A DNA stretch of 64,000 nucleotides from Escherichia coli (GTDB lineage: Bacteria; Pseudomonadota; Gammaproteobacteria; Enterobacterales; Enterobacteriaceae): assembly GCF_041886205.1 (NCBI RefSeq), contig NZ_CP169029.1; one strand, written 5' to 3'. How positions within the stretch are numbered: the stretch's first letter is position 1; every line of letters begins with the position of its first letter. The notes beneath the pieces were generated by a model, which was not told the origin of the DNA, did no database searches, and worked only from the letters and a program-made list of their open reading frames with translations. The position numbers and the translations under genes are program-made. Of the stretch, positions 1 to 17,380 are shown piece after piece.

Positions 1-575
1 CCAAAACAGCACAGCAGCACATCGCCCGGCTGTGCCGCTGACAACGGCACCTGATACAGCCCCGTCGCCTCCAGATTGCGTTTCACCCACGAAGCATGGC
101 CGCCATTGTCACCAAGAAAATCCCCGCCCTGCGACATAGCGATGGAAAGAGCAGGTATTGATTCGTAGTACGCCAGCATTTCAGAAAGGATCGCATCCAG
201 TTTCCTTATCGGAAAATAGGCCTGGTCATAGTTGCGATCCACCCGAAACTGGAACTCGTGATAATCATCATCGAGCTGAATGAAGTATTTACACCCGACC
301 AGTTTTGCCAGGTCGAAACAGGCATTACGGGCGTAAAAAATTGAGCGGCGGTCACAGAAATTATCGGCTTCGTCAAAACGACTGGCGATATCGGCTTTGG
401 AAAACACCAGCACCTGTTCACCAAATTCAGCCATGTACTGATGCCGTGTCTTATCTTCATCATCAACAACGATAAAAATTTTCCCGGTATAGCCAGCACG
501 ACGCAACGTCCGGTAAGTCAGAACTTTGTCCGGTCGCCCGTGAGTCAGAATAAAGGCGCAAAAATCATCACGCAT
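1..575 (-). CDS. Hypothetical protein, N-terminal ~191 aa only (gene continues past window start); weak GT-A-like motif pattern
   Basis: Own translation of the minus strand from ATG at 573-575: MRDDFCAFILTHGRPDKVL...IFIVVDDEDK...YFIQLDDDY. Start overlaps the stop of the upstream ParB-like gene (ATGCGTGA). Not in the ORF track because there is no stop inside the window. Confidence 0.5.
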   Translation of the reverse strand, partial: MRDDFCAFILTHGRPDKVLTYRTLRRAGYTGKIFIVVDDEDKTRHQYMAEFGEQVLVFSKADIASRFDEADNFCDRRSIFYARNACFDLAKLVGCKYFIQLDDDYHEFQFRVDRNYDQAYFPIRKLDAILSEMLAYYESIPALSIAMSQGGDFLGDNGGHASWVKRNLEATGLYQVPLSAAQPGDVLLCCF

Positions 576-1359
576 ATTCCTCCTCCTCACCACCATGCAT
601 GATCTCCACCATGCGCTGCGTCATCCGGACAAATCCATTTTCAATAGCCTGCTGATAATCAATGATCACCAGCGCCGACTCCTCGAAAAAACACTGAATT
701 TCAGCGGGGGCGTGAGCGTAATAGTCCGCAATTCTGCTGAAATTAAACACCGTGTGACGTTCTGCCGCACACAGGAGGAATTTCTCAATATCAGGCTCAA
801 GGGAAGCCAAACGTATCCGGCTGATCAGCTCCTGCGTTTTCGTATCGTCGTACAGTTCACTGATATCCGGTTTACCGCCCGACGGCTCATAAACAGGCGT
901 ATCAATTTTCGTCGTATACGGCTCCTCCTCATTTCCTGTACCGGGCAAAACATCCGTCAACAGTTCATCAATTTCTGTCGGGATGAAGCCTGTCAGGGAG
1001 ACATCAAAATCAGCATTGATTAGGTCCGACAGCTCCATCCGCAACAGATCTTCATCCCAGCCAGCATTCATCGGCAGGCGATTATCTGCCAGGCGGTACG
1101 CCTTTTTCTGCTCATCCGTCAGGCCAGACAGAACAATGACCGGAACAGAATCCATTTTGAGCATTTCAGCCGCCATAACACGACCGTGACCCGCAATAAT
1201 TTCGCCCTTTTCGTCAATCAGCACCGGATTAGTCCAGCCGAATTGCTTAATACTTTCTACCAGTTGTGCCACCTGCTCAGGGCTGTGCGTCCTGGCGTTG
1301 TGCGCATACGGTGACAATTCTTGTAATGGGCGATAGACTATCTTTAATTTCTCGCTCAT
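568..1359 (-). CDS. ParB-like nuclease domain (ParB/Srx fold) protein, 263 aa
   Basis: N-terminal ~100 aa resemble the ParB N-terminal domain (…AGHGRVMAA…); C-terminal 150 aa unrecognised. Good RBS (AAGGATG) before ATG. Position after trkG mirrors the Rac-prophage arrangement. Confidence 0.6.
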   Translation of the reverse strand: MSEKLKIVYRPLQELSPYAHNARTHSPEQVAQLVESIKQFGWTNPVLIDEKGEIIAGHGRVMAAEMLKMDSVPVIVLSGLTDEQKKAYRLADNRLPMNAGWDEDLLRMELSDLINADFDVSLTGFIPTEIDELLTDVLPGTGNEEEPYTTKIDTPVYEPSGGKPDISELYDDTKTQELISRIRLASLEPDIEKFLLCAAERHTVFNFSRIADYYAHAPAEIQCFFEESALVIIDYQQAIENGFVRMTQRMVEIMHGGEEEEYA

Positions 1360-1496
1360 ACATCCTTGCTTTATGAATAAAACGCACCCCAGCAGCCAGT
1401 GCTACTGGGGGCGGAGGTGTTGCTGGTAAAGTTAGGTATTGGATCAATGAGTGAGTCAACATAATATTAAACTCACAATTATAAATCAGCCATATA

Positions 1497-2954
1497 TTAG
1501 GAGCGCCAAAAAAAACCTGAAAACAAAATAATAACAGGATAAATTTCAAGGCGACCAAGAATCATAGCTATGCACATTAAATATTTTGCAATGTCATTAA
1601 GCACTCCGAATGACGATGCAGTAGCCCCAAAACCTAATCCCATATTATTAATACATGCAGCCACTGTTGCAAATGATGTAAGAAAATCATATCCCATACC
1701 ATTTAACACCAGTATAAAAAACACCGTGAAGAGAGTATAAAGAAAAAAGAAACTCCATACAGACCTCATTACACGATCTGTAACTATCTTCCCTCCTACA
1801 TTTACACTCAACAACGCTCTGGGATGAGAAAGCTGATTTATCTCGTGTTTGCTTTGTTTGAAAAGTATAAGAAATCGAAGTGACTTAATTCCACCACAAG
1901 TTGAACCTATACATCCCCCAAAGAAACTTGACAACAGCAAAAACACTATCGTGTGCGTGGGCCAGCTTGCATAATCCTGCATAGCTAAACCATTATCAGT
2001 GAGCATGGAGCTGGCAAGAAAAAACGAATGAATAAAACTTCCATGCAAGTCATACATACCTATATGCCAGACCTGGAAAGAGGTAACAATGATCACCCCT
2101 AAGGCTATTAACAGAAAGAAACGAAGTTCAATATCTCTGATTAAAGGTTTTATCGTTTTCCTGCTAATAACAATATACCAAAGAGTGAAGTTGAAAGCCG
2201 ATAGCAGGGAAAAAGAACCAGCCACCAGCTCAACCAAATAGTTATTAAAATATCCGATACTCTCGCTATGAGTTGAGAAACCACCAAGCGAAACTGTGGA
2301 AATCCCGTGACAAATAGCATCAAACAAAGGCATTCCTGCAAGTCTATAACAGACAATACAAGCAATACCTAATAAAGAATAAGTTATCCACAGTGTCCGT
2401 GACGTATCGGCCAGGCGGGGAGTGAGTTTGTCATCCTTAAATGGCCCCGGCATTTCTGACTGATAAAGCTTTGCACCACCAATACCCAATAATGGCAATA
2501 CAGCAACCGCCAGAACAATAACTCCTAAACCACCTATAAAATTTAACTGTGACCGATAGTACAAATATGCCCGAGGTAATGAACTAACATCATCAATTAC
2601 AGTTGCTCCTGTTGTTGTTATTCCAGAAACCCCTTCAAACAGAGCATCAATGAACGTTAAATTAAGTTCTGAGTCAATCCATAAAGGGAATGCACTAATA
2701 ACAGAAAACAAAATCCAAAACATTACAATTATAATAAACCCATCACGGGTACGTAATTGAATGCCAGATTTCTTAGTTGTATACCACGCTCCGCCACCAA
2801 TGCAAAAAAATATAACGAAAGTTATAAAGAAAACGAACAGGCTTTTTTCTTTATAAAACAATGCTACAACCATTGGTGGCAACATTGAAAGACTATAGAG
2901 CCAAACCAGGAACCCACACATATGAGTAACAACTCTTACATGAGATGTATTCAT
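1497..2954 (-). CDS. trkG: TrkG/TrkH-family potassium uptake membrane protein (prophage-borne)
   Basis: Translation from MNTSHVRVVTHMCGF… gives 485 aa, multi-pass membrane protein with Trk-type motifs; AT-rich codon usage. The ORF track starts 6 codons upstream (2972). Confidence 0.85.
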   Translation of the reverse strand: MNTSHVRVVTHMCGFLVWLYSLSMLPPMVVALFYKEKSLFVFFITFVIFFCIGGGAWYTTKKSGIQLRTRDGFIIIVMFWILFSVISAFPLWIDSELNLTFIDALFEGVSGITTTGATVIDDVSSLPRAYLYYRSQLNFIGGLGVIVLAVAVLPLLGIGGAKLYQSEMPGPFKDDKLTPRLADTSRTLWITYSLLGIACIVCYRLAGMPLFDAICHGISTVSLGGFSTHSESIGYFNNYLVELVAGSFSLLSAFNFTLWYIVISRKTIKPLIRDIELRFFLLIALGVIIVTSFQVWHIGMYDLHGSFIHSFFLASSMLTDNGLAMQDYASWPTHTIVFLLLSSFFGGCIGSTCGGIKSLRFLILFKQSKHEINQLSHPRALLSVNVGGKIVTDRVMRSVWSFFFLYTLFTVFFILVLNGMGYDFLTSFATVAACINNMGLGFGATASSFGVLNDIAKYLMCIAMILGRLEIYPVIILFSGFFWRS

Positions 2955-3091
2955 ATCTAAATATTCTTTCAATTATAACCACCTTGCTGCAATATTATGA
3001 TTATACTGTATAAAATTTAACTCCTCTTAGATCTTACTTCACTGTTCCTTATGAAACAATCATCAAAATGAATCATATTGTAGTTAAGATT

Positions 3092-3556
3092 TTACTTTAA
3101 ACACTGTTCGGTTATGTATTGCTGAGCACCTTCAAGTTGGGCCTGCATCATTACCAGTCGTTCCCGGAGGGTGAAATAATCCCGTTCAGCGGTGTCTGCC
3201 AGTCGGGGGGAGGCTGCATTATCCACGCCGGAGGCGGTGGTGGCTTCACGCACTGACTGACAGACTGCTTTGATGTGCAACCGACGACGACCAGCGGCAA
3301 CATCATCACGCAGAGCATCATTTTCAGCTTTCGCATCAGCTAACTCCTTCGTGTATTTTGCATCGAGCGCAGCAACATCACGCTGACGCATCTGCATGTC
3401 AGTAATTGCCGCGTTCGCCAGCTTCAGTTCTCTGGCATTTTTGTCGCGCTGGGCTTTGTAGGTAATGGCGTTATCACGGTAATGATTAACAGCCCATGAC
3501 AGGCAGACGATGATGCAGATAACCAGAGCGGAGATAATCGCGGTTACTCTGTTCAT
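3092..3556 (-). CDS. Rz i-spanin (lysis protein)
   Basis: [51 protein letters not shown]… closely matches lambda-family Rz. ATG overlaps the endolysin-frame stop. Confidence 0.85.
3151..3336 (-). CDS. Rz1 o-spanin lipoprotein, embedded in Rz in the +1 frame
   Basis: …[42 protein letters not shown]… with lipobox and proline-rich segment typical of Rz1. Exact start uncertain. Confidence 0.75.
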
Positions 3557-3570
3557 TGCTGACCCCACAA

Positions 3571-4050
3571 ACAGATTTCACGCTCAATCTCACGACGAGT
3601 CATGAGACCTTTCCATTGCTTACCGCCAGCATATGTCCAGCGACGTAGCTGATCACATGCGCCTTTGATATCGCCCTAGTTTATTTTGCGAAGAAGCGTC
3701 GATGTTCTGAAATTGCCAGCACCCACGTTGTAAACGAATGAGTAAAGAGCGCCGCGCATTGTTTCCGGTATATCGACTTTGATGTACGGGTTAATTTGTC
3801 TGGCGACCGTGGCAAGGTCTTTATTCAGGAGGGCTTTGCATTCTGCTTTGGTATACGTTTTACCGGGAATGATGTCTTTTCCTGTATGCCCGTGACATAC
3901 AGTCCATACACCAACAATATCTTTGTATGGTATGTAGCTGACACCTTCCAGACCATCGTTACCACTTGGGCCAGTAATTAACACTGATGCTATAGCAATT
4001 GCTCCGCCACCAATAGCAGCAGCAACGGCTTTTCGTAATGATGGAGGCAT
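3571..4050 (-). pseudogene. SAR-type endolysin (phage-21/DLP12 RrrD-like lysozyme) interrupted by an in-frame amber codon
   Basis: ORF ends at TAG (3676-3678) after 124 aa. The same frame continues for 34 more codons ([40 protein letters not shown]) to a TGA overlapping the Rz start. Looks like a CAG-to-TAG change. Confidence 0.7.
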
Positions 4051-4265
4051 TATTCACCTCTCGCAGCCTTGCGCTTATCTTCTTTAATCTTGAAATAAAG
4101 GTTTGTCAGGTACGTCAGCAGGCCAAATACCAGGCTACCCAGCACACCTATTGCTGCCCACTGTGAGGGCGTGACTTTATCGAGCAGCTGTAAAAACCAG
4201 TAACCGGCACTACCTGCTGAGGTGCCATAGGCGACACCCGTTGTTAACTTATCCATGGATTTCAT
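4050..4265 (-). CDS. Class II holin / pinholin (S21-like)
   Basis: [71 protein letters not shown]; two closely spaced Met starts as in phage-21 S. ORF-track start at 4310 is probably too far upstream. Confidence 0.8.
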
Positions 4266-4385
4266 AACCCCACCTCGCAGACAAAGCGGGTGTAAATTGA
4301 GGGAATACAACGTATCGCAAAAAAGCAGAAACGTAACAGACTCGGAGTCAGTGAATAACTCAGGTATTGGGTTATCAGCTAATAT

Positions 4386-4426
4386 CGAGACTCAAAAAAT
4401 GGAAAAACCCGCTCGACGGCGGGTTT
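4386..4426 (-). terminator. Candidate rho-independent terminator on the minus strand just upstream of the holin (possible tR'-like element)
   Basis: Minus-strand hairpin AAACCCGCCGTCGAGCGGGTTT followed by TTCCATTTTTTGAG. Confidence 0.4.
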
Positions 4427-4852
4427 AAGCTGTGTGACGAAGTAACCACTCTTAACAGCATAACCAATTTTTTACGTACGTAAACCACTAAATGATATTT
4501 GCGAGAATGCTACCGAGTATTGAAAACACCACTACAAATACATAAGCAAATCTCAACAAATAACCAACAAATAATTTCCAGCGTTATTTTTAGCTGGTTT
4601 AAATTGAACCTTCAAATTATAGAGCACTTATAAATAACAGCCATTAATATAAATTGGCTAATAGATTTATTTTTATTCAGCCAAGAGCCATGAATAGGAT
4701 TCGATAGAAAAAGTTCAGATAAAAATAGAGATCTACTTCACAAATCAAATGAGAAACCAAAACTTACATCTTGAAATAATCACATTGATTAGATGAATAT
4801 TTATCGCGCAGTGACATCATTTTTTAATAATAGTTCAAAAAAAGGGCTCACG

Positions 4853-5935
4853 ATGAAAAAATTAACAGTGGCAATTTCTGCTGTAGCTGCATCAGTACTG
4901 ATGGCGATGTCTGCTCAGGCAGCTGAAATTTATAATAAAGACAGTAACAAGCTGGATCTGTACGGGAAAGTTAATGCTAAGCACTACTTCTCCTCTAATG
5001 ATGCAGATGATGGTGATACTACTTATGCCCGTCTTGGCTTCAAAGGTGAAACCCAAATCAACGATCAACTGACTGGTTTCGGTCAGTGGGAATATGAATT
5101 CAAAGGCAACCGCGCTGAATCTCAAGGTTCCTCCAAAGATAAAACCCGTCTTGCCTTCGCTGGCCTGAAATTCGGTGACTACGGCTCCATCGATTATGGC
5201 CGTAACTACGGTGTAGCATACGATATTGGTGCATGGACCGACGTTCTGCCAGAATTCGGTGGCGATACCTGGACCCAAACAGATGTATTCATGACTGGTC
5301 GCACCACAGGTGTTGCAACTTATCGTAACAATGACTTCTTTGGTCTGGTTGATGGTCTGAACTTTGCTGCTCAGTATCAGGGTAAAAATGACCGCACTGA
5401 CGTAACTGAAGCTAATGGTGATGGTTTCGGTTTCTCCACTACTTATGAGTATGAAGGATTCGGTGTAGGTGCAACCTATGCTAAATCTGACCGCACTAAT
5501 AATCAGGTTATCTACGGTAACAACAGCCTGAATGCATCTGGTCAAAATGCTGAAGTATGGGCAGCTGGTCTGAAATATGATGCGAACAACATCTATCTGG
5601 CTACCACCTATTCTGAAACCCAGAACATGACTGTTTTTGGTAATAACCATATTGCCAACAAAGCACAAAACTTCGAAGTAGTTGCACAATATCAGTTCGA
5701 CTTCGGTCTGCGTCCGTCCGTTGCTTACCTGCAATCTAAAGGAAAAGACTTGGGTGCGTGGGGTGATCAGGACCTGGTTGAATATATTGATGTAGGTGCA
5801 ACCTATTACTTCAACAAAAATATGTCCACTTTTGTTGATTACAAAATCAACCTGATTGATAAGAGCGATTTCACGAAAGCATCTGGCGTTGCTACCGATG
5901 ATATCGTTGCTGTAGGTATGGTTTACCAGTTCTAA
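4853..5935 (+). CDS. nmpC: Outer-membrane general porin of the OmpC/OmpF/NmpC (phage Lc) family; appears intact
   Basis: [23 protein letters not shown] signal peptide, C-terminal …VGMVYQF, typical porin composition. Sits between Q and S on the opposite strand, as in DLP12 and PA-2. Confidence 0.8.
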
Positions 5936-6072
5936 TTTGATTACTAAAAGATATGTTGCGGGAGGCTTTGCCTCCCCAACATATAAGTGGCTCCCTCAAG
6001 CCACTTCCTTTAGGAGCACAACCTTGCTTCTAACTATATAAACCTTCTGTTATATATTACCCTTTATTTTTG

Positions 6073-6100
6073 GGGGCGTCTCAACGCCCCATTTTTAATA
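6073..6100 (+). terminator. Rho-independent terminator downstream of the porin gene
   Basis: GGGGCGTCTCAACGCCCC hairpin followed by ATTTTTAATAATTTTT. A second long hairpin (ATGTTGCGGGAGGCTTTGCCTCCCCAACAT) lies at 5957-5988. Confidence 0.5.
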
Positions 6101-6123
6101 ATTTTTAGTAAACAATTGGCATA

Positions 6124-6507
6124 TTAATTAGAGTTATTAACAACGATATCCATCTCTAACCGGATATCTAATGCCATTAACATCCCTTCAATTATGCCCT
6201 CAGCCTTCTGTAACCTTTTCCCGATATAACCATCAGAGCAGCAATGCTTACCTGCCAGTGACATGAATGTCATACCGACTACATAATAATCTACTAATAA
6301 ATCGTGCAAATCGCTGTTGTTCTTTTTCAGACGGGCCATGCACCCGCAAATAATCATCGCGTCATCGTCACAACATTGCGGGCGAGATTTTACTTTTGAA
6401 GTAATTAATCCCTTAAAACCGGCGGCAATGGACGACCAGGTCACATCTTCATGATTATTAGCCGCCCACGCTCCCCAACGCTCAAGAACCATCTGAATAT
6501 CACGCAT
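6124..6507 (-). CDS. quuD: Q-type late-gene antiterminator (DLP12 QuuD-like)
   Basis: [34 protein letters not shown]…[16 protein letters not shown]…; the ORF track extends 5 codons upstream. Confidence 0.8.
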
Positions 6508-6592
6508 CAACTTACTCCACAAAAATCAGACCAGAACGCCAATTACAAGCAAAAATCAACGAAACAGTATTAGTTGATTGTTATCTCTGACT

Positions 6593-6730
6593 TCATACTC
6601 CTGCTCCTGTCAGGGTTTTGGCGTAATTCTTCAGTATTCGGTAATCGGTCAAAACAGAACCGGGGAAACGATATAAGCGCAGACGCCCCCAGCGGTGGCG
6701 AAGACGTTCTGCCATATAAAACTCAAACAT
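6593..6730 (-). CDS. ylcG: Small nin-region ORF (YlcG-like, 45 aa)
   Basis: Own translation [48 protein letters not shown] overlaps the rusA stop (TGATG). Below the ORF-track size cut-off. Confidence 0.5.
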   Translation of the reverse strand: MFEFYMAERLRHRWGRLRLYRFPGSVLTDYRILKNYAKTLTGAGV

Positions 6731-7092
6731 CATTCATTCCCCATTTCGGTGATGGTCAGTTCCAGCCTCCCACCTTTGGTAACAGGCATCTTCACAACGC
6801 GGTAATCAACGACCTGAGCATCATCCAGCCAGAAACCTGCTTTAGTGAGTGCGTCAAAAGCGGCTTTTTGCAGATTATCCAGGTCACGGCGACGGCGATC
6901 CGGCATGTGGCACTCAATGCGGATTTTCACAGGCATAGCCAAGCCGATATCCAGCATTGCGTTTTTAATGATTCGGGCGACGTTATCGCGGTATGCCTGC
7001 CCCTCTGCGCTGACGTGCGTGCGCCCGCGATTATGGCGGTAATAGCGATTATTGCTCGGAGGCCAGGGTAATGTGATGCTGTAGGTATTCAC
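6730..7092 (-). CDS. rusA: RusA Holliday-junction resolvase
   Basis: [108 protein letters not shown]… 120 aa. Confidence 0.9.
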
Positions 7093-7379
7093 GCCTTAAT
7101 AACCCCCTCTTTCAGCCAGATAACCTGTGTTCTCGCCATACCTTCCAGCGCGCATTCTTTTGCATATGCAGCATCGACAAAATGTGTGCGGCGGTCGATT
7201 TCGTCGTGGCAGGCAGAACATGCAATGGTGGCAATCAGGTCTGGCGGTTTGGTACCGGTGCCGCACAATCCAGTCAGCCGGATATGTGCCAGTACAGACG
7301 TTTCAGGGTTACCATTACATACGCCAGGGATTCTTACCTGGCATTCCCGACTACGCGCTGCTTTTCTCAAATCAGCCAT
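7089..7379 (-). CDS. ybcO: Nin-region protein YbcO-like (96 aa)
   Basis: [67 protein letters not shown]…; ORF track starts further upstream at 7418. Confidence 0.75.
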
Positions 7380-7542
7380 GATTCCTCCTTGCTGCCAGTC
7401 GCAACCATTTTTTATCAACCAGGCTGGCGGTATATCCGAGCAGTGTTGGTATTTCGGAAGGTTTCAGCTCCGGTTTACGCTTACGACGATTTGGTACTCT
7501 GTAGATGTGTCCGTTCATGACACGAATAAGCGGTGTAGCCAT
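7372..7542 (-). CDS. ninE: NinE-like protein (56 aa)
   Basis: Own translation [56 protein letters not shown]; start overlaps ybcN stop, stop overlaps ybcO start. Confidence 0.75.
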   Translation of the reverse strand: MATPLIRVMNGHIYRVPNRRKRKPELKPSEIPTLLGYTASLVDKKWLRLAARRNHG

Positions 7543-7951
7543 TACGCCTCCTGCTTGTCACGGAGCTGCTGGAACTCGCAGCTCTGCGGAATAGTCAGAT
7601 GGCAGCCAATATTCACCGCCCAGGCTTCAACCTTACACAGGAAGACATACATCTCTCCGGTATCAAGATCGGAGGTATGGCGTAACGACTGGATAGTGGT
7701 GATATCACCGGTTACGACATCAACCAGGTCTTTGGTTTCATAACCGAGATATGTGTGTTTGAGAGCATCTTTTACCCAAGCTGGAGTGGCGAACGTTTTA
7801 CCCCTGCTGATGAGGTATTCACTGATTTCGCTGTACCACATGTGGCTGAGTGCATTCTGGGAAAGACTGCGTTTCTCACGCCACGGTTTAAGCACCATGA
7901 ACCGCCCCGGGAATCCTGGAGACTAAACTTCCTGAGAAAGAGGTAAACAGG

Positions 7952-8274
7952 ATGACTAAAAATACTCGTTTTTCCCCCGAAGTCCGTCAACGGGCAGTCC
8001 GTATGGTTCTGGAAAGTCAGAGCGAATATGACTCACAATGGGCGACAATTTGTTCCATTGCTCCAAAGATTGGCTGTACGCCGGAGACTCTGCGTGTCTG
8101 GGTTCGCCAGCATGAGCGGGATACCGGGGGCGGTGATGGAGGGCTCACCACCGCTGAACGTCAGCGTCTGAAAGAGCTGGAACGTGAAAATCGTGAACTG
8201 CGCCGCAGTAACGATATCCTTCGCCAGGCTTCCGCTTATTTTGCGAAGGCGGAGTTCGACCGCCTCTGGAAAAA

Positions 8275-8278
<4 letters not shown>
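7952..8278 (+). CDS. IS3-family transposase OrfA (HTH + leucine zipper)
   Basis: [60 protein letters not shown]…. Confidence 0.85.
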
Positions 8279-9166
<888 letters not shown>

Positions 9167-9270
9167 GTTCACAGATAAAACACTCTCCAGGAAACCCGGG
9201 GCGGTTCACCATGCGAAAGCATTTGCCCTCCTCCAGATAAGGCTGGATCTGCCGACCGATAGCGGTGAAG

Positions 9271-9558
9271 TTACCGCGATGTAATTTTATGCCGTCTTGT
9301 GGGAGGTTCACGCTTCACCTCCGCAGAGGCCAAACGCTGGATGCAAAAAATCGCAGGTGCATTTCTGCATCTGTGAATGGAGAAGATAGGTTGGTTTGTA
9401 TGTGCGCATAACCCCAAATCTTCATACGTTACGGTATCAAGGTAATAATCACTATTTACCTTTAGCCATTCAGTAATAAGCCTTCTCTGGCGGTTTAATG
9501 AATCACCAGACATCTGACCTGGTGATGAAAATCGCATATATGCTATGGCTTTTTTCAT
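9271..9558 (-). pseudogene. 5' fragment of a serine recombinase / resolvase gene (DLP12 YbcK-like)
   Basis: First ~50 aa (MKKAIAYMRFSSPGQMSGDSLNRQRRLITEWL…) look like a resolvase catalytic N-terminus; the rest is non-homologous and overlaps the ybcN start, implying a deletion junction. Confidence 0.5.
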
Positions 9559-9813
9559 GGTGACACCTGCTAAAGTATGCTTTTATAAACCTTAGTGGTG
9601 AGATATGATTTTTGTTTAATTTTTATTTAAAAAGACAATTAAGGTCACATTATCTTGAATATACAACAATAATCGCATTGCAATTTTCTTACACCATAAT
9701 CCTGAAAGCACAAAAGAATGAATAAAAACTAAAGACATTAACAAAAAGCATAAAACGAGGCCCATATAAATATACGAACCTCCATATTTTAGTCGTTTAA
9801 AAACAAATTATTT

Positions 9814-10146
9814 TTAATGTGGTGTGCTTCGTGACAATAAATTAATAACCAACACACCGGCACAAATCAACATCATGCCTATAATGGCTGGCAGGTCCAA
9901 CCGTTGGCCGAAAAATCCCCATGATAGTAAGCTAATCAGGACAATACCGACTCCTGACCAGATAGCATAAGCAATCCCTGTAGGAATATAAGCCAGCGTC
10001 TGAGCTAATAACCAGAATGATGCACAATAACAAATAATTGTACCAACAGATGGCCATAACCGTGTAAAACCTTCTGAAAACTTCATTAAGGTTGTACCAA
10101 TGACCTCTGCAAGTATTGCACCACCAAGATAAATATAAGGATTCAT
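9814..10146 (-). CDS. emrE: Small multidrug resistance efflux protein EmrE (110 aa)
   Basis: MNPYIYLGGAILAEVIGTTLMKFSEGFTRLWPSVGTIICYCASFWLLAQTLAYIPTGIAYAIWSGVGIVLISLLSWGFFGQRLDLPAIIGMMLICAGVLVINLLSRSTPH; the ORF track starts 18 codons upstream. Confidence 0.9.
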   Translation of the reverse strand: MNPYIYLGGAILAEVIGTTLMKFSEGFTRLWPSVGTIICYCASFWLLAQTLAYIPTGIAYAIWSGVGIVLISLLSWGFFGQRLDLPAIIGMMLICAGVLVINLLSRSTPH

Positions 10147-10213
10147 AGCATATTCTTTCCTGTTCAAACTGGAGAGAATTGTACTACAGTTTGAACTCAA
10201 CTCACCTGTTTCA

Positions 10214-10516
10214 TCATTGTGTACCCATTGATGTTCTTTTATATACCCTCAATACCCGTTTCATCGCGGCACTCTGGCGACACTCCTTAAAAATCAAATT
10301 CGTGCTCACCTTTCCTTCCCATTCTTCTCTGGTAGCGAACCGATAATACACCGTTCGCCAGACCTTACCATCAACGACCAGGATTCCTGCCCGCGCCATT
10401 TTAGCCGCAGCCTGATTTATGCTGGTTACCGTTGCGCCTGTTACCGCGGCAACGTCCTGCGCACAGAATTTCTTATGAGTCCCCAGGTAATGAATAATTG
10501 CCTCTTTGCCCGTCAT
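10214..10516 (-). CDS. ren: Lambda Ren-like protein
   Basis: MTGKEAIIHYLGTHKKFCAQDVAAVTGATVTSINQAAAKMARAGILVVDGKVWRTVYYRFATREEWEGKVSTNLIFKECRQSAAMKRVL…. Confidence 0.8.
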   Translation of the reverse strand: MTGKEAIIHYLGTHKKFCAQDVAAVTGATVTSINQAAAKMARAGILVVDGKVWRTVYYRFATREEWEGKVSTNLIFKECRQSAAMKRVLRVYKRTSMGTQ

Positions 10517-10901
10517 ACCCTTGCTCCTTTCAGCCCAAACTTAGCTTTGATTTCTGCGATCTTCGCCAGAGCCTGTGCACGATTTAGAGGTCTACCGCCC
10601 ATGACAGGAAGTTGTTTTACTGGTTCAGGTATAGCCTCACCACGGTTAATTCGCGCGGTCATACAGGCCAGTTCATCGGCAGCCTTGCGCCGTAATTCCG
10701 CGTCAGTCAACGCATTGGCCCGCATGTTCTGGTAGCCAGGCTCGCCGGGAAAGTTGCCAGTAACTGGCTGAACACACCATTGATGATCTGCGCTACCAGC
10801 TGTACCTGCGGCTTTTCGTCGTACTGTTCCGGCATGTTATTGGCGATCCGACGCATCTGCTCACGGTCAAAGTTAACCATCTGTGCGGCGATGTTTTTCA
10901 T
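10513..10901 (-). pseudogene. P: Replication protein P with an internal out-of-frame deletion
   Basis: N-terminal fragment MKNIAAQMVNFDREQMRRIANNMPEQYDEKPQVQ…ATFPASLA (10707-10901) and C-terminal fragment …YQNMRANALTDAELRRKAADEL…AKFGLKGARV (10513-10725) lie in different frames, joined near 10730. Confidence 0.75.
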
Positions 10902-11425
10902 AAATCCACCCCATAAATCCAGTCAGTGTTTGTCAGGTCGAGTTTTGATTTTCCGGCTGTCACGCCAGCCTGTTGCTTGTTACGGTTGATTTCGAGTTGG
11001 GTCCACTTGTCGCGGAGTTTGGCCGGACATAGCACGTTACCGGACCAGAAGTTGTCCTGGCATGCCCAGCGGAACAGCACGCACATGTCGCGGTGGTTAC
11101 GTCCGTCACGTTCACGCATCAGGCGGATATCGTTAGCCCACCCTGCAAAATTCGGTTTTCTGGCTGATGGCGCGATGGTCTTCACCATGTCAAACATCCA
11201 CTCTGCGGCGGTCAGGTCTTCTGCTGTCCCCCACTTGCTGCCGCTCTGAATTGCAGCATCCGGTTTCACCACAGGAAGATCGTTTTCTGGCTGGTCAGAG
11301 GATTCGTCAGAATTCTCGGACGAAAAAGGTTTTATATTGTCTTTTGTTAGTTTGTCTTTTGTGTTTACCTGATTCGGGTAAACGCCTTTAATCGAACAAG
11401 ACCCGTTAGTAACTATCGACATCAT
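10898..11425 (-). pseudogene. O: C-terminal remnant of replication initiator O; N-terminal domain and ori are absent
   Basis: …KDNIKPFSSENSDESSDQPENDLPVVKPDAAIQSGSKWGTAEDLTAAEWMFDMVKTIAPSARKPNFAGWANDIRLMRERDGRNHRDMCVLFRWACQDNFWSGNVL… matches the lambda O C-terminal domain. Upstream sequence is from the left arm (ea22 3' end), so the gene is truncated at a deletion junction. Confidence 0.75.
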
Positions 11426-11716
11426 TACGCATCGCTATTACGGGGTTGGAGGTCAATGGGTTCAGGATGCAGGTGAGTATCTGCATATGATGTCTGACGC
11501 TGGCATTCGCATCAAAGGAGAGTGAGATCGGTTTTGTAAAAGATAACGCTTGTGAAAATGCTGAATTTCGCGTCGTCTTCACAGCGATGCCAGAGTCTGT
11601 AGTGTCAGATGATGACCGTACTCAAACATCGGGTTGAGTATTATCTTACTGTTTCTTTACATAAACATTGCTGATACCGTTTAGCTGAAACGACATACAT
11701 TGCAAGGAGTTTATAA

Positions 11717-11998
11717 ATGAGTATCAATGAGTTAGAGTCTGAGCAAAAAGATTGGGCGTTATCAATGTTGTGCAGATCCGGTGTCTTGTCTCCATGCAGA
11801 CATCACGAAGGTGTTTATGTAGATGAAGGTATAGATATAGAGTCGGCATACAAATATTCCATGAAGGTTTATAAGTCTAATGAAGACAAATCCCCATTCT
11901 GCAATGTGCGAGAAATGACTGATACCGTGCAAAATTATTATCACGAGTACGGTGGAAACGATACTTGCCCTCTCTGTACAAAACATATAGATGATTAA
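11717..11998 (+). CDS. ea8.5: Lambda Ea8.5 protein (93 aa)
   Basis: MSINELESEQKDWALSMLCRSGVLSPCRHHEGVYVDEGIDIESAYKYSMKVYKSNEDKSPFCNVREMTDTVQNYYHEYGGNDTCPLCTKHIDD; correct spacing relative to xis/int. Confidence 0.85.
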   Translation: MSINELESEQKDWALSMLCRSGVLSPCRHHEGVYVDEGIDIESAYKYSMKVYKSNEDKSPFCNVREMTDTVQNYYHEYGGNDTCPLCTKHIDD

Positions 11999-12293
11999 AC
12001 CCAATATTACATAACAATCCTCGCACTCGCGGGGATTTATTTTATCTGAACTCGCTACGGCGGGTTTTGTTTTATGGAGATGATAAATGCACTTCCGAGT
12101 CACAGGAGAATGGAATGGAGAGCCATTCAACAGAGTTATCGAAGCGGAGAACATCAACGACTGCTACGACCACTGGATGATATGGGCGCAGATAGCACAT
12201 GCAGACATAACCAATATTCGAATTGAAGAACTGAAAGAACACCAAGCCGCCTGATGGCGGTTTTTTCTTGCGTGTAATTGCGGAGACTTTGCG

Positions 12294-12512
12294 ATGTACT
12301 TGACACTTCAGGAGTGGAACGCTCGCCAGCGACGCCCAAGAAGCCTTGAAACAGTTCGTCGATGGGTGCGCGAATGCAAGATATTCCCTCCTCCGGTTAA
12401 GGATGGAAGAGAATATCTGTTCCACGAATCAGCGGTAAAGGTTGACTTAAATCGACCAGTAACAGGTAGCCTTTTGAAGAGGATCAGAAATGGGAAGAAG
12501 GCGAAGTCATGA
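12294..12512 (+). CDS. xis: Excisionase Xis (72 aa)
   Basis: MYLTLQEWNARQRRPRSLETVRRWVRECKIFPPPVKDGREYLFHESAVKVDLNRPVTGSLLKRIRNGKKAKS; overlaps the int start as in lambda. Confidence 0.95.
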   Translation: MYLTLQEWNARQRRPRSLETVRRWVRECKIFPPPVKDGREYLFHESAVKVDLNRPVTGSLLKRIRNGKKAKS

Positions 12513-13560
12513 GCGCCGGGATTTACCCCCTAACCTTTATATAAGAAACAATGGATATTACTGCTACAGGGACCCAAGGACGGGTAAAGAGTTTGGATTA
12601 GGCAGAGACAGGCGAATCGCAATCACTGAAGCCATACAGGCCAACATTGAGTTATTTTCAGGACACAAACACAAGCCTCTGACAGCGAGAATCAACAGTG
12701 ATAATTCCGTTACGTTACATTCATGGCTTGATCGCTACGAAAAAATCCTGGCCAGCAGAGGAATCAAGCAGAAGACACTCATAAATTACATGAGCAAAAT
12801 TAAAGCAATAAGGAGGGGGCTGCCTGATGCTCCACTTGAAGACATCACCACAAAAGAAATTGCGGCAATGCTCAATGGATACATAGACGAGGGCAAGGCG
12901 GCGTCAGCCAACTTAATCAGATCAACACTGAGCGATGCATTCCGAGAGGCAATAGCTGAAGGCCATATAACAACAAACCCTGTCGCTGCCACTCGCGCAG
13001 CAAAATCAGAGGTAAGGAGATCAAGACTTACGGCTGACGAATACCTGAAAATTTATCAAGCAGCAGAATCATCACCATGTTGGCTCAGACTTGCAATGGA
13101 ACTGGCTGTTGTTACCGGGCAACGAGTTGGTGATTTATGCGAAATGAAGTGGTCTGATATCGTAGATGGATATCTTTATGTCGAGCAAAGCAAAACAGGC
13201 GTAAAAATTGCCATCCCAACAACATTGCATGTTGATGCTCTCGGGATATCAATGAAGGAAACACTTGATAAATGCAAAGAGATTCTTGGCGGAGAAACCA
13301 TAATTGCATCTACTCGTCGTGAACCGCTTTCATCCGGCACAGTATCAAGGTATTTTATGCGCGCACGAAAAGCATCAGGTCTTTCCTTCGAAGGGGATCC
13401 GCCTACCTTTCACGAGTTGCGCAGTTTGTCTGCAAGACTCTATGAGAAGCAGATAAGCGATAAGTTTGCTCAACATCTTCTCGGGCATAAGTCGGACACC
13501 ATGGCATCACAGTATCGTGATGACAGAGGCAGGGAGTGGGACAAAATTGAAATCAAATAA
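12490..13560 (+). CDS. int: Lambda-type tyrosine integrase Int (356 aa), apparently intact
   Basis: MGRRRSHERRDLPPNLYIRNNGYYCYRDPRTGKEFGLGRDRRIAITEAIQANIELFSGHKHKPL… with C-terminal …HELRSLSARLYEKQISDKFAQHLLGHKSDTMASQYRDDRGREWDKIEIK. Confidence 0.95.
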   Translation: MGRRRSHERRDLPPNLYIRNNGYYCYRDPRTGKEFGLGRDRRIAITEAIQANIELFSGHKHKPLTARINSDNSVTLHSWLDRYEKILASRGIKQKTLINYMSKIKAIRRGLPDAPLEDITTKEIAAMLNGYIDEGKAASANLIRSTLSDAFREAIAEGHITTNPVAATRAAKSEVRRSRLTADEYLKIYQAAESSPCWLRLAMELAVVTGQRVGDLCEMKWSDIVDGYLYVEQSKTGVKIAIPTTLHVDALGISMKETLDKCKEILGGETIIASTRREPLSSGTVSRYFMRARKASGLSFEGDPPTFHELRSLSARLYEKQISDKFAQHLLGHKSDTMASQYRDDRGREWDKIEIK

Positions 13561-13660
13561 TGATTTTATTTTGACTGATAGTGACCTGTTCGTTGCAACA
13601 AATTGATAAGCAATGCTTTTTTATAATGCCAACTTAGTATAAAAAAGCAGGCTTCAACGG
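13561..13660. other. attL prophage-host junction: phage P' arm (13561-13633), 15-bp core (13634-13648), bacterial arm
   Basis: …GTTGCAACAAATTGATAAGCAATGCTTTTTTATAATGCCAAC TTAGTATAAAAAAGC AGGCTTCA…; the sequence left of the core is the lambda attP arm, the sequence right of it runs into the ybhC upstream region. Confidence 0.9.
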
Positions 13661-13694
13661 ATTCATTTTTCTATTTCATAGCCCGGAGCAACCT

Positions 13695-14978
13695 GTGAAT
13701 ACATTTTCAGTTTCCCGTCTGGCGCTGGCATTGGCTTTTGGCGTGACGCTGACCGCCTGTAGCTCAACCCCGCCCGATCAACGTCCTTCTGATCAAACCG
13801 CGCCTGGTACCTCTTCTCGCCCGATTCTGTCGGCAAAAGAAGCGCAGAATTTCGATGCTCAACACTATTTTGCATCCCTGACACCAGGTGCTGCAGCGTG
13901 GAATCCTTCCCCGATTACCCTGCCTGCGCAACCTGACTTTGTTGTCGGCCCGGCGGGCACTCAAGGTGTAACGCATACCACGATTCAGGCGGCGGTAGAT
14001 GCGGCAATTATCAAGCGTACCAACAAGCGCCAGTATATTGCCGTGATGCCTGGTGAGTATCAGGGAACGGTATATGTCCCTGCCGCTCCGGGTGGAATTA
14101 CTCTGTACGGTACAGGTGAAAAACCGATTGATGTGAAGATTGGGCTTTCCCTTGATGGTGGCATGAGCCCTGCCGACTGGCGTCACGACGTCAACCCGCG
14201 CGGCAAATATATGCCAGGTAAACCAGCGTGGTATATGTACGATAGCTGCCAGAGCAAACGCAGCGACAGTATCGGTGTTCTCTGCTCTGCGGTCTTCTGG
14301 TCACAAAACAATGGCCTGCAACTGCAAAATCTGACCATCGAAAACACGCTGGGCGATAGCGTAGATGCAGGTAACCATCCGGCGGTGGCACTGCGTACTG
14401 ATGGTGACCAGGTACAGATTAACAACGTTAACATTCTCGGTCGTCAGAACACCTTCTTTGTCACCAACAGCGGTGTGCAGAACCGTCTGGAAACGAATCG
14501 TCAGCCGCGTACGCTGGTGACCAACAGCTACATTGAAGGGGATGTGGATATCGTTTCTGGTCGCGGCGCAGTGGTGTTCGATAACACCGAATTCCGCGTG
14601 GTGAACTCACGTACTCAGCAAGAAGCGTATGTGTTTGCACCGGCTACGCTGTCCAACATTTACTACGGTTTCCTCGCCGTAAACAGCCGTTTCAATGCTT
14701 TCGGTGATGGTGTGGCGCAACTGGGCCGCTCGCTGGATGTTGATGCCAATACCAACGGTCAGGTGGTGATCCGTGATAGCGCCATCAACGAAGGTTTTAA
14801 CACGGCTAAACCGTGGGCCGATGCGGTGATCTCTAATCGTCCGTTTGCGGGTAATACCGGCAGCGTAGATGATAACGACGAAATACAGCGCAATCTGAAT
14901 GACACTAACTACAACCGCATGTGGGAATACAATAACCGCGGCGTGGGCAGCAAAGTGGTTGCAGAGGCGAAGAAGTAA
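13695..14978 (+). CDS. ybhC: Outer-membrane lipoprotein YbhC (pectinesterase-like acyl-CoA thioesterase family)
   Basis: Lipoprotein signal (…LTLTACSS), 427 aa. Confidence 0.85.
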   Translation: MNTFSVSRLALALAFGVTLTACSSTPPDQRPSDQTAPGTSSRPILSAKEAQNFDAQHYFASLTPGAAAWNPSPITLPAQPDFVVGPAGTQGVTHTTIQAAVDAAIIKRTNKRQYIAVMPGEYQGTVYVPAAPGGITLYGTGEKPIDVKIGLSLDGGMSPADWRHDVNPRGKYMPGKPAWYMYDSCQSKRSDSIGVLCSAVFWSQNNGLQLQNLTIENTLGDSVDAGNHPAVALRTDGDQVQINNVNILGRQNTFFVTNSGVQNRLETNRQPRTLVTNSYIEGDVDIVSGRGAVVFDNTEFRVVNSRTQQEAYVFAPATLSNIYYGFLAVNSRFNAFGDGVAQLGRSLDVDANTNGQVVIRDSAINEGFNTAKPWADAVISNRPFAGNTGSVDDNDEIQRNLNDTNYNRMWEYNNRGVGSKVVAEAKK

Positions 14979-14993
14979 GAGCTATTAACTATT

Positions 14994-15112
<119 letters not shown>

Positions 15113-15118
15113 CGCTTT

Positions 15119-17380
15119 TTACATCTGACGGTTTTTATTGAAGTTAATCAAACTACCCGCCTTGATAATCTCGCGCTCTTCAGCAGTCAGACTTTCCATA
15201 TAGAGCGTAATCTCCGTTACCGGCGCATCTTCATGGATCACATAACCTTTAAACGTCGTACCCGGATTATCCAGCGCCGCTTTAATGCCAGGGATGTAAA
15301 TGTAATCCCCCACTTCAAAGGTTGGCGCTTCCGCCATCTGCAGCGGTAACATCCCCCAGTTGATGACGTTAGAACGGTAGCGTTTAGTCGCGTACTCCTC
15401 GGCAATATTCGCCAGACCGCCAATCACACGCTGGCAGCTCGCCGCCTGTTCACGCGCAGAACCATCGCCTGGTTTCACCGCATAGACCATGCTGCCAATT
15501 TCAGTTTGCAGCGGATCAATATGCTCCTGACCAGCAATCTGCTTAATGCGCGCAAACACCTCTGTCAGCTCGCTGACATTCCCCGCCAGACGCTGATTTT
15601 CCAGCTCAGCAGTCGCTTTACTTCTGCCAACATAACCGGGATCGCGGCGAGACAGGGTAAACTCCGCCAGACCAATCGGATTTGAACGATAAGAAGAGGT
15701 TTCACCGGAAGGAATCAGTTCGTCGGTGGTGGTCACTTCGTCGAGGATCTTCGAGCACACTTTGAGGACGATATTGTCAGTCAGCGCACCCAATTCCGGC
15801 CAGTCTTTAATGTTCGGTCCGTAAATCAGCGGTTGCTGAGTTGCCCCTTTCACAAAGCCCTGATAAACACGGTTTTTATACGGCGTTACATCGAAGGCGT
15901 ACTCCGGCACGTTGTCCCAGCAATCAAGTTCGCTGGCAGAAGTTAAATAGCCACCGTTTGCCGCAGTCGCAGCGATAGAACGAGCGTCCATCAACGCCAC
16001 CGCTGACATCTGCCCATTGGCTGGCTTAGAGCCTTCGCGATTCGGGAAGTTACGCGTGGTGTGGCGAATACTCAAACCGTTGTTGATTGGCGTATCGCCC
16101 GCGCCAAAGCATGGGCCGCAGAACGCGGTTCTGATGATTGCGCCTGCGCCAATCAAATCTGCTACCACACCTTTTTTGGCGAGATCCATAAACACCGGCT
16201 GTGATGACGGGTAAACCGCTAACGAGAAGGTGTCATTGCCACAGGATTGACCGCGCAGTGCGTTCGCCGCCGCGATGACGTTTTCGTAGTTACCGCCAGA
16301 ACAGCCCGCGATAATCCCCTGCTGCACTTTCAGGCGACCATTTTCTACTTTATCCAGCAGCGAGAGTTTGGCTTTACCGTGCGCCACGCGTTCGGACTCA
16401 ATTTCAATCTCACGCAGAATGTCGATCAGGTTCTGGTTCAGTGTGTCGATTTCATACACGTTGCTCGGATGGAACGGCAGCGCAATCATTGGTTTGATGG
16501 CGCTTAAATCAACGCTGATGCAACCATCGTAGTACGCCATCGGTTGTGGATTAAGCTGGCAATAATCCTGGCCGCGACCGTGCAGCGCCAGCCAGTTATG
16601 CACTTCTTCATCGGTTTGCCAGACAGAACTTAAACAGGTCGTTTCAGTGGTCATAACGTCAACGCTGTTACGGAAATCGGTAGAGAGCGCAGCAACACCG
16701 GGTCCTACGAATTCCATCACTTTGTTTTTGACGTAGCCGTTTTTGAACACGGCACCGATGATAGCCAGCGCCACATCCTGCGGCCCCACATACGGCGCTG
16801 GTTTTCCGGTCAGATGCACCGCAACCACGCCCGGATAGTCGATATCCCAGGTGTCATTCAGCAGCTGTTTTACCAACTCACCGCCGCCCTCACCGACTGC
16901 CATTGTCCCTAATGCACCGTAACGGGTGTGGCTGTCTGACCCGAGGATCATTTTGCCGCCGCCTGCCATCATCTCACGCATATATTGATGGATGACCGCA
17001 ATGTGCGGAGGCACAAAAATACCGCCATAACGCTGAGCCGCCGATAAACCAAAAACATGGTCATCACCGTTAATGGTGCCACCGACGGCGCAAAGTGAGT
17101 TATGGCAGTTGGTCAGCACATACGGCAGCGGGAAACGTTCCATACCGGACGCTTTAGCGGTCTGTACAATACCAACAAAGGTAATATCGTGAGAGGCTAA
17201 TGAATCAAACTTAATTTTAAGTTTATCCATATTTCCGGACGTATTATGAGAAGAGAGAATAGACCAGGCAATAGTGCCTTTTTGGGCTTCTTCTTTTTTA
17301 ATTTGGCCGGTGAAATGTTCTTCGGCAATTATTTCGTTATTACTGGCGAGAAACACGCCTTTTTCAGATAACTTGATCAT
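15119..17380 (-). CDS. ybhJ: Aconitase-family putative hydratase YbhJ
   Basis: 753-aa product starting [18 protein letters not shown]…; the ORF track begins 8 codons upstream. Confidence 0.8.

Follow-up and report, generated by a model that had tools for sequence, protein, structure and literature searches.

A cryptic lambdoid prophage at the lambda attachment site of Escherichia coli, read as a multi-deletion derivative of a temperate phage type

What is the prophage DNA that adjoins ybhC at the lambda attachment site of this E. coli chromosome, and does its resemblance to several K-12 prophages mean that several prophages contributed to it? The window, by which we mean the whole stretch of DNA analysed (64,000 nucleotides of contig NZ_CP169029.1), begins within this element, and an earlier note had described positions 1-13648 as a prophage at the lambda site that lacks immunity and replication functions and is a mosaic drawn from three sources, lambda, DLP12 and Rac. 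We assign a probability of roughly 0.87 to the reading that these positions hold two thirds, on the int side, of a cryptic lambdoid prophage at att-lambda, a multi-deletion derivative of a temperate phage type of ~50 kb. Alignments against lambda, DLP12, Rac and phage PhiR68_2 gave a collinear lambdoid gene order from which the essentials of lysogenic control and lytic growth have been lost. As a dead lambda-like remnant in the classic lambda insertion site, the element is ordinary.

The location was fixed by the 15-bp lambda core (GCTTTTTTATACTAA), which has a single occurrence in the window, on the minus strand, and lies at the phage-host junction between ybhC (start at 13695) and ybhB. Positions 11388-13648 aligned with lambda (NC_001416) 29984-27724 with 17 mismatches and no gaps over 2261 nt (99.25% DNA identity), an arm that takes in the att core, the P' arm, int, xis, orf55, ea8.5 and the 3' end of ea22, and the portion matching lambda 27724-28051 (core, P' arm and int 3' end) contained no mismatch at all. 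The core beside ybhC and this int arm bear out the placement of a defective prophage at the lambda site. No inactivating change in int or xis was found on comparison with lambda and with the near-intact prophage of strain 6EVA, as the earlier note had expected from the appearance of the two genes (protein identities in Table 1). The catalytic set of Int (R212, K235, H308, R311, H333 and Y342) is present in full, activity being judged from sequence only, and two of the four Int substitutions relative to lambda (H164P and I248V) together with one of the two in Xis (G59S) are shared with the 6EVA prophage.

Table 1. Coordinates of prophage features within positions 1-13648 of the window.
Feature	Position	Strand	Remarks
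Fusion ORF	1-575	-	Runs off window start; N-terminal 167 aa GREB1-like (phrog_842) joined in frame to C-terminal 93 aa of tail-tip K
ParB/Srx-like	568-1359	-	Full length, 263 aa; open ORF; phrog_620 matched over 3-217 of 217
trkG	1497-2954	-	Potassium transporter, cargo; 485 aa, intact; TIGR00933 412 bits (cutoff 331)
Rz spanin rzpD	3092-3556	-	154 aa, intact; Rz1 lipoprotein embedded at 3151-3336, 61 aa, intact
rrrD	3553-4050	-	21-type SAR endolysin, inactivated; nonsense Q125* at 3676-3678
essD	4050-4265	-	21-type holin; 71 aa, intact
OmpC-family (NmpC/OmpD-like) porin	4853-5935	+	Antisense to late operon; 360 aa, intact; NF007841 518 bits (cutoff 484)
quuD (Q antiterminator), ylcG, rusA, ybcO, ninE	6124-7542	-	All open
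ybcN (NinB-like)	7542-9311	-	Split by IS; 3' part 7542-7897, 5' part 9209-9311
IS3-family element	7898-9208	+	1311 bp, inside ybcN; resembles IS1203/IS629
ylcH, ybcK remnant, ylcJ, emrE, ren	9308-10516	-	ybcK remnant 9403-9558; emrE 9814-10146, intact
P remnant	10513-10901	-	Internal 311-bp deletion, junction 10733-10734, out of frame
O remnant	10898-11390	-	C-terminal 160 codons; ori A+T-rich region and one iteron (about 11365-11387)
ea22 remnant	11388-11525	+	Last 45 codons; junction with O' at 11388-11390, 3 bp overlap
ea8.5, orf55	11717-12254	+	ea8.5 11717-11998, 93/93 as in lambda; orf55 12087-12254, 54/55
pI promoter region	12268-12314	+	cII boxes TTGC-N6-TTGC; no difference from lambda in aligned stretch
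xis	12294-12512	+	72 aa; 70/72 as in lambda
int	12490-13560	+	356 aa; 352/356 as in lambda Int; catalytic residues present
attL	13561-13648	-	P' arm and 15-bp core (13634-13648); identical to lambda

The losses are extensive. That everything from the end of ea22 to the middle of O is missing was confirmed by alignment, with ea22 homology starting at 11388 and O homology ending at 11390, the position at which homology to PhiR68_2 also stops. Absent from the window are the repressor, N, cro, cII, exo/bet/gam, the O N-terminus, every ori iteron except one, the terminase and head genes and most tail genes, and the reading frame of P is broken. The left end of the element lies outside the view, and its structure is taken here from the close relative wlxctx60, a 99.96%-identical genome in which the element extends for another 6.3 kb as far as attR. 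Tail remnants (K'/I', J', lom', stf' and tfa) and a gene for a diguanylate cyclase (GGDEF) are all that this additional part contains. Neither a repressor nor a replication module was found there, and the claim of an element without immunity or replication functions therefore holds for the window and for the wlxctx60 part beyond its start. Scans with NCBIfam, PHROG and PADLOC returned phage-remnant and cargo annotations only, with no regulator, replication or packaging-redirection ORFs of satellite type. The sole PADLOC match was a ParB-like domain shared with some methyltransferases, with no relevant defence match, the sole Rfam match was the ALIL frameshift pseudoknot of the IS, and a tRNA search of the window returned none.

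Several of the lesions in this DNA had been overlooked at first reading, namely the IS in ybcN, the rrrD stop, the 311-bp P deletion and the ybcK-region deletion, as had the continuation of the element past the window start. The IS begins with TG, ends with CA and is flanked by a 3-bp target duplication (CCA at 7895-7897 and 9209-9211), its orfB is frameshifted by a 1-nt insertion at 8654, its ALIL pseudoknot lies at 8233-8349, and the insertion is missing from both wlxctx60 and 6EVA. The rrrD stop is a single SNP at 3678 relative to the same two genomes. At the ybcK junction (9403-9411, 9 bp overlap) most of ybcK and the accessory genes up to ylcH have gone. In the fusion ORF, annotated in full in wlxctx60 at 11799-12575 of the compared locus (L001), the deletion junction is at 76-77: positions 1-77 are 100% identical to lambda K, 6EVA homology begins at 76, and the PHROG matches split at residue 166. 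Neighbouring alignment blocks overlap by 2-9 bp at every deletion junction.

The element resembles different K-12 references in different segments. Outside the int arm, lambda matches the O C-terminus, P and ren at 91-95%, Rz at 94% and the K/I fragment at 99%, whereas trkG and the ParB-like and GREB1-like genes are absent from lambda, and the nin region, Q, S, R and porin of the window are not lambda-type. For these, the order ren-emrE-ylcJ-ybcK'-ylcH-ybcN-ninE-ybcO-rusA-ylcG-quuD-(porin antisense)-essD-rrrD-rzpD is shared with DLP12 and with its viable relative, phage PhiR68_2 (PV340576.1), at identities over the shared block of 92-98% and 94.6-98.3%, respectively. The DLP12 arrangement proposed earlier for nin, emrE, Q, porin and lysis genes was thus recovered (3102-7899 and 9207-10734 collinear, 92.5-98.4%), as was the 21-type character of the lysis genes, the intact RrrD allele being 163/165 identical to PDB 3HDE, which we take to be the phage 21 SAR endolysin. 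DLP12 itself occupies the argU site with intD, carries IS5 in nmpC (the window porin is whole) and IS3 in ren, retains ybcK-L-M, and carries bor after Rz where the window has trkG. Identification of the element with DLP12 was rejected in view of the att-lambda site and lambda-type Int, only the nin-Q-lysis module being shared. The trkG end follows Rac, as had been claimed, with 1106-3536 being 99.26% identical to K-12 Rac (99.3% for the Rz-trkG-ynaK segment, and likewise for trkG). Rac, in contrast, lies at ttcA with intR, recET and racR, and its Rz and ynaK are cut by its own deletions while both are full length in the window; K-12 ynaK is a truncated N-terminus of the ParB/Srx-like protein, which is encoded by a 792-nt gene in the 6EVA annotation as well. 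Because intR, recET, racR and the ttcA site are not present and only Rz-trkG-ynaK is shared, identity with Rac was likewise rejected.

Whether these likenesses record three parents was decided by comparison with 6EVA (NZ_CP138428.1, about 1,374,951-1,424,950), which has a near-complete lambdoid prophage of ~50 kb at the same ybhC...ybhB att-lambda site, in a chromosome whose flanks are 99.97% identical to those of the window. That prophage retains the repressor, cro, O, P, exo/bet/gam, terminase, head and tail genes that the window element has lost, although the annotation marks a frameshift in its tape-measure gene and an internal stop in its side tail fibre gene. In it, O-P-ren-emrE...Q-porin-S-R-Rz-trkG-ParB-GREB1-like forms one contiguous module, and the same module order is found in the argU-site prophage of strain 118C_1_fosA3. 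The protein accessions for trkG, Rz, RrrD, porin, QuuD, YlcG and RusA, as well as those for the GGDEF and tfa proteins, are common to 6EVA and wlxctx60, and attR, the GGDEF gene and the tfa end are 99.8% identical to 6EVA.

Recombination of three distinct prophages, with lambda, DLP12 and Rac each giving one arm, would account for the change of best K-12 match from segment to segment (99.25%, 92-98% and 99.3%, respectively), and module exchange is known among lambdoid phages. The stretch 76-6351 spans the supposed DLP12/Rac boundary, however, and differs from 6EVA by only 3 bases; the DLP12-like and Rac-like parts are contiguous in the near-intact prophages of both 6EVA and 118C_1_fosA3, and the match to K-12 Rac stops at K-12's own deletions (ydaW/rzpR and ynaK/ydaY). 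Furthermore, trkG is 100% identical and single-copy in 6EVA and wlxctx60, the closest genomes, so that neither contains a resident Rac that could have served as donor. A three-prophage origin is therefore very unlikely, and the mosaic claim of the earlier note falls in that its "DLP12" and "Rac" pieces are one block in a prophage at the same site; the apparent three-way pattern arises because DLP12 and Rac were taken as references. To judge from these gene orders, the K-12 DLP12 and Rac prophages are decayed remnants, each keeping a different part of one module. A real mosaic boundary does exist at the level of alleles, in that the region which starts near rusA, takes in the early genes and reaches xis represents a different allele from that of 6EVA: identity to 6EVA falls to 93-97% between about 6940 and 11390, xis and the 5' end of int are more diverged from 6EVA than the flanks are, and 6EVA is without ea8.5 and ea22'. 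These allele boundaries, near rusA and inside xis/int, are genuine points on the side of exchange. In view of these differences the element is no pure deletion derivative of the 6EVA prophage, and either one or more module exchanges or a sibling phage as parent must be assumed.

Under the deletion-derivative reading, the ancestor would have carried lambda-type int/xis/att, a lambda-like O/P early region, a block of DLP12-type nin, Q, porin and 21-type lysis genes, trkG, the ParB-like and GREB1-like genes, a non-lambda terminase/head region, a lambda-like tail tip (K-I-J) and the diguanylate cyclase gene beside attR. Decay in the lineage would then have proceeded by at least six deletions at microhomologies of 2-9 bp. 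These would have taken out the segment for immunity, recombination and ori between ea22' and O', 311 bp within P, the ybcK region and, between GREB1-like' and K', about 16 kb with packaging, head and tail genes; on the far side of the window start, part of I to J and most of lom to stf would have been lost as well. The window strain itself would later have acquired the IS3-family insertion in ybcN and the endolysin stop codon. The resulting remnant is predicted to be unable to repress, replicate, package or lyse, and its intact survivors would be mostly cargo (trkG, emrE and porin) together with nin, Q and spanin genes. Three junctions could be counted cleanly (K', ybcK and O'/ea22'), and each was found in only 1 of 5,426 complete genomes. 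For the P junction, 3,097 genomes gave at least 80% coverage, a figure that is not a count of deletions since the two halves were joined across intact P; as a single piece, that junction occurred only in wlxctx60 among the matches listed. SNPs numbered 5 in about 12.3 kb of prophage and 10 in 50 kb of flank, and a raised density in the prophage was set aside as a difference too small to interpret.

The intact integration genes leave mobility to be considered. With pL and N lost, the remaining cII-dependent pI would serve int alone, and the element is thus expected to stay silent and in place, except where Int and Xis come in trans from a lambda-type phage. The differences from lambda nearest to pI lie at lambda 29165 (window 12207) and 29049 (window 12323), and the region matches the lambda pI sequence without a mismatch. 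Upstream of xis there are three terminator-like hairpins, and a sigma-70 consensus scan of the plus strand there found no site, a weak negative. From the missing promoters, xis and int are expected to be silent, although the IS or read-through transcription could drive some expression. In wlxctx60, attR has the core at 5693-5707 (L001) and keeps the P1/P2 arm sites; its P arm is only 88.6% identical to lambda, with the X2/F/H2 region diverged, and the same P arm is present at attR of the near-intact 6EVA prophage. Excision of the element in trans is plausible.

One could go further and regard the element as a functional helper-dependent, satellite-like mobile element that keeps int, xis and att so as to be excised and moved regularly by lambda-type helpers, with trkG, emrE, the porin and the diguanylate cyclase gene as its load. 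The intact Int, Xis, attL and pI and the wlxctx60 attR with its core and P1/P2 arm sites would suit such a role, for which defective O157 prophages that can be excised and packaged with the help of other prophages offer a precedent (PMC2669165). Against it, the terminase and the whole packaging/head region are deleted, so that no packaging site is expected, and neither replication or regulatory genes nor matches to defence or satellite families were found. The same structure, moreover, is present in just one other complete genome, near-clonal and at the same site, and absent from 5,424 others, a distribution that points to vertical descent rather than spread, and we consider satellite function highly improbable. 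Collapse or misjoining of similar prophages during assembly, to which the shared repeats of lambdoid prophages can give rise, has a negligible probability here: the independent complete genome wlxctx60 has an identical structure except for the IS, the junction microhomologies are clean, and the IS has a proper 3-bp target duplication.

Comparable remnants are known at this site. The defective lambdoid prophage at ybhC of O157:H7, which we take to be Sp3 of Sakai (alias CP-933K), has lambda-type int and xis and is without repressor, cro, N, O and P, but its deletion (bet' to ninE) has end-points other than those of the window element, its int is frameshifted, its Q/nin module is another one, and it keeps terminase and head genes. 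A published table lists Sp3 as having no repressor, antirepressor or replication functions (PMC2669165). Lambdoid prophage DNA carrying dgcX is also found at attB (Richter et al. 2014, PMC4287979); it has a GGDEF gene directly inside attR beside tail-fibre genes at lambda attB, as do the close relatives beyond the window start, a likeness by position only. Lambda-type int adjoins ybhC in about 35% of complete E. coli genomes, with the int-ybhC junction present in 1,911, so that occupancy of att-lambda is common. It is conceivable, if rather doubtful, that the remnant, with its perfect attL, matching attR and intact int and xis, is a live recombination substrate. A superinfecting lambda-type phage might then excise it or integrate beside it and acquire trkG, emrE, the porin or the GGDEF gene through homologous exchange, and the repeated, independent loss of immunity and replication at att-lambda, seen in this element as in O157:H7, would be due to selection against replication in situ and against kil-type toxicity rather than to neutral decay.

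Beyond annotation the finding matters little, and its useful point is methodological. DLP12 and Rac are poor references because they are different leftovers of one common late-region architecture, so that intact or less decayed relatives look like DLP12/Rac mosaics. The near-complete prophage of 6EVA and the versions with six deletions in wlxctx60 and the window strain, carried in almost identical chromosomes, provide a clean natural example of the rapid whittling of a prophage by microhomology deletion while its cargo stays intact.

The lambda attachment core GCTTTTTTATACTAA occurred once in the 64 kb window, on the minus strand at 13634-13648, with ybhC starting 47 bp past it and the remainder of the window being gal-side chromosome (ybhC, mod, gal, tol-pal genes and a lysine/valine tRNA cluster). 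The right boundary of the element is therefore exactly the attL phage-host junction, and its left boundary is merely the window edge. Int was identical to lambda Int at 352 of 356 residues, with R212, K235, H308, R311, H333 and Y342 all present; Xis (70/72), Ea8.5 (93/93) and orf55 (54/55) were similarly close, and there were zero mismatches to lambda 27724-28051 across the core, P' arm and int 3' end. The arm and att junction are thus lambda-type with int and xis intact in appearance, as had been read from the sequence.

Coordinates of the features and deletion junctions of the element. Window 1-16000 was compared by local blastn with four references (lambda, phage PhiR68_2, and the DLP12 and Rac prophages of K-12); deletions are counted relative to the 6EVA-type gene order, and overlap is the number of bases common to adjacent alignment blocks.
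Feature	Window position	Match	Overlap
K fragment	1-77	lambda, 100%	
GREB1-like fragment and most of ParB-like gene	78-1105	unmatched in lambda, DLP12, Rac	
ynaK, trkG, Rz	1106-3536	Rac, 99.26%	
Rz, R, S, antisense porin, quuD, ylcG, rusA, ybcO, ninE, ybcN part	3102-7899	DLP12, 92.5-98.4%	
IS3-family insertion	7898-9208	unmatched in all four references	
ybcN remainder, ylcH, ybcK stub, ylcJ, emrE, ren, P remnant	9207-10734	DLP12, 94-97%	
O C-terminal half	10733-11390	lambda, 94.9% (to 11364); PhiR68_2, 97.4%	
ea22 3' end, ea8.5, orf55, xis, int, attL	11388-13648	lambda 29984-27724, 99.25%	
Junction K'/GREB1-like'	76-77		2 bp
Junction ybcK region	9403-9411		9 bp
Junction P internal	10733-10734		2 bp
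Junction O'/ea22'	11388-11390		3 bp
Junction I'/J'	beyond window		6 bp
Junction lom/stf	beyond window		5 bp

A deletion spans from within ea22, of which the last 45 codons remain, identical to lambda, to within O, which retains its C-terminal 160 codons, the A+T-rich part of ori and one TTTACCCGAATCAGGTAAA-type iteron versus five in the viable DLP12-related phage PhiR68_2. Window 1-13648 lacks repressor, cro, N, cII, cIII, exo/bet/gam and kil, P carries an out-of-frame internal deletion of 311 bp, and most of ybcK is deleted together with the accessory genes between ybcK and ylcH. The loss of the ea22-O region and of immunity and replication genes holds as first described, and the interpretation of the element as defective is supported. 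In the closest genome, wlxctx60 (NZ_AP045833.1), whose chromosome matches the entire window at 99.96-99.98% identity and differs by five bases within the prophage (one being the rrrD stop, present in the window strain only), the element extends 6.3 kb past the window start through K'/I', part of J, lom', what is left of stf, tfa and a sensor GGDEF gene; it ends at an attR that combines a directly oriented core with a P arm (88.6% identity to lambda) and a B' arm, and ybhB comes next. These 6.3 kb hold neither a repressor nor a replication gene, so that, as far as this near-clonal genome can show, the missing modules do not reside beyond the window and the refutation proposed in the earlier note does not apply. 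The sensor GGDEF diguanylate cyclase gene (443 aa) sits just inside attR in both close relatives (wlxctx60 locus L001, 6348-7679; 6EVA locus L009, 16874-18205) and is possibly dgcX, known from attB of O104:H4 and ETEC strains; an earlier study (PMC4287979) described GGDEF genes (dgcX) adjoining lambdoid DNA at attB.

The earlier note had regarded the element as a three-way mosaic of lambda, DLP12 and Rac. Alignment to these references upheld the arrangements, namely the DLP12-like order of nin region, Q, antisense porin and 21-type lysis genes and the Rac-like trkG end, but not the three-way origin, since strain 6EVA (NZ_CP138428.1), whose chromosome flanks match the window at 99.97% identity, carries these parts as one contiguous block of a nearly complete prophage (~50 kb) integrated at the same site. 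Its order is int-xis, further on exo-bet-gam, repressor, cro and O-P-ren-emrE-ylcJ-ybcK, and later ybcN-ninE-ybcO-rusA-ylcG-quuD, porin, essD-rrrD-rzpD, trkG, ParB-like and GREB1-like genes, terminase, portal, head, tail, K-I-J-lom-stf-tfa, a GGDEF gene and attR. Window 76-7899 aligned to 6EVA gap-free, with only three base differences over 76-6351, across the supposed Rac/DLP12 boundary; the argU-site prophage of 118C_1_fosA3 shows the same contiguity, and trkG is single-copy in both wlxctx60 and 6EVA. The three-way mosaic is consequently rejected: the "DLP12" and "Rac" pieces are one natural module, of which K-12's DLP12 and Rac each retained a different part. The element has modules in common with both but is a member of neither, because integration site and integrase differ.

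The central early segment, by comparison with 6EVA, is a different lambdoid allele, given that 32 of the 37 mismatches within 76-7899 lie beyond 6940, that 9207-11390 is only 93-97% identical, that ea22' and ea8.5 are absent from the 6EVA prophage, and that 12039-12420 has 14 mismatches. A true allele boundary does exist, elsewhere than at the Rac/DLP12 join, and the allele difference reflects either an ordinary exchange of modules or a sibling phage as parent.

At least six deletions from the 6EVA-type order would account for the present structure, and the few-base overlap at each would fit illegitimate, microhomology-mediated deletion. Among 5,426 complete E. coli genomes, only wlxctx60 has each of the junctions at K', ybcK and O'/ea22', so the decay is specific to this narrow lineage. 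The IS1203/IS629-like insertion of the IS3 family inside ybcN (1311 bp) is bounded by TG...CA ends and a 3-bp target duplication (CCA) and contains an ALIL frameshift pseudoknot; one additional A at 8654 puts its orfB transposase out of frame, and otherwise identical copies elsewhere are 1310 bp. Wlxctx60 lacks this IS although otherwise near-identical, and the insertion and the rrrD stop are probably younger than the deletions.

Intact genes include trkG, emrE, porin, rusA, quuD, holin and spanins. The lysis genes are 21-type, with a 71-aa holin; the intact RrrD allele is 163/165 identical to PDB 3HDE, which we take to be the phage 21 SAR endolysin. The rrrD stop codon (Q125*, 3676-3678), absent from wlxctx60 and 6EVA, is strain-specific, and the holin and Rz/Rz1 spanins are still intact beside it. 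The full-length Rz aligns to K-12 Rac (locus L003, 14201-14313) past the annotated rzpR pseudogene start into the ydaW 3' end, so that the K-12 ydaW end seems Rz-derived, left by deletion. The window starts inside a fusion ORF in which 167 N-terminal GREB1-like residues (phrog_842) are fused in frame to the last 93 aa of tail protein K. The element's "ynaK" (568-1359; L001 12568-13359) is a continuous, full-length 263-aa ParB/Srx-like ORF, split in the NZ_AP045833.1 RefSeq annotation into a partial ynaK pseudogene and a separate hypothetical protein; the 792-nt gene is annotated whole in 6EVA, and K-12 ynaK appears to be a truncated form.

Judged from its sequence, the remnant would be incapable of repression, replication, packaging and lysis. 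The int and xis ORFs are open, pL and N are gone, no sigma-70 consensus site was found in the scanned segment upstream of xis, where three terminator-like hairpins lie, and the sole surviving promoter is pI, with intact cII boxes; lambda pI requires cII and transcribes int, not xis. The element is therefore unlikely to excise spontaneously. If a lambda-type phage supplied Int and Xis, excision in trans, which the earlier note had considered, would be plausible because attL is perfect, the diverged attR P arm also serves the near-intact 6EVA prophage, and that prophage has half of the substitutions in Int and Xis too.

Elsewhere in the window, the lysine/valine tRNA cluster (39050-40092) contains two 94-nt repeats (39179-39272 and 39895-39988, 87% alike) whose first 18 nt are those of the tRNA-Lys copies; the repeats diverge afterwards and may be tRNA-Lys fragments. 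Two 85-nt intergenic repeats (17477-17561 and 63204-63288, 87% identical) resemble ERIC/IRU-type elements. By the annotation of a near-identical genome, ~51970-59640 (L010, the matching region there, 5266-12937) holds genes for a methylaspartate mutase and ammonia-lyase clustered with one for a dicarboxylate symporter; this cluster is not known to occur in K-12.

The lambda-type int-attL-ybhC junction occurs in 1,911 of 5,426 complete genomes. The O157:H7 prophage at the same ybhC site, which we take to be Sakai Sp3, independently lost bet' to ninE (repressor, O and P included) and has a frameshifted int. Sp3 has been described as devoid of repressor, antirepressor and replication functions (PMC2669165), in agreement with this loss. 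The sequence observation as a whole is confirmed; the type of element is already well known, and the present one is new but ordinary.
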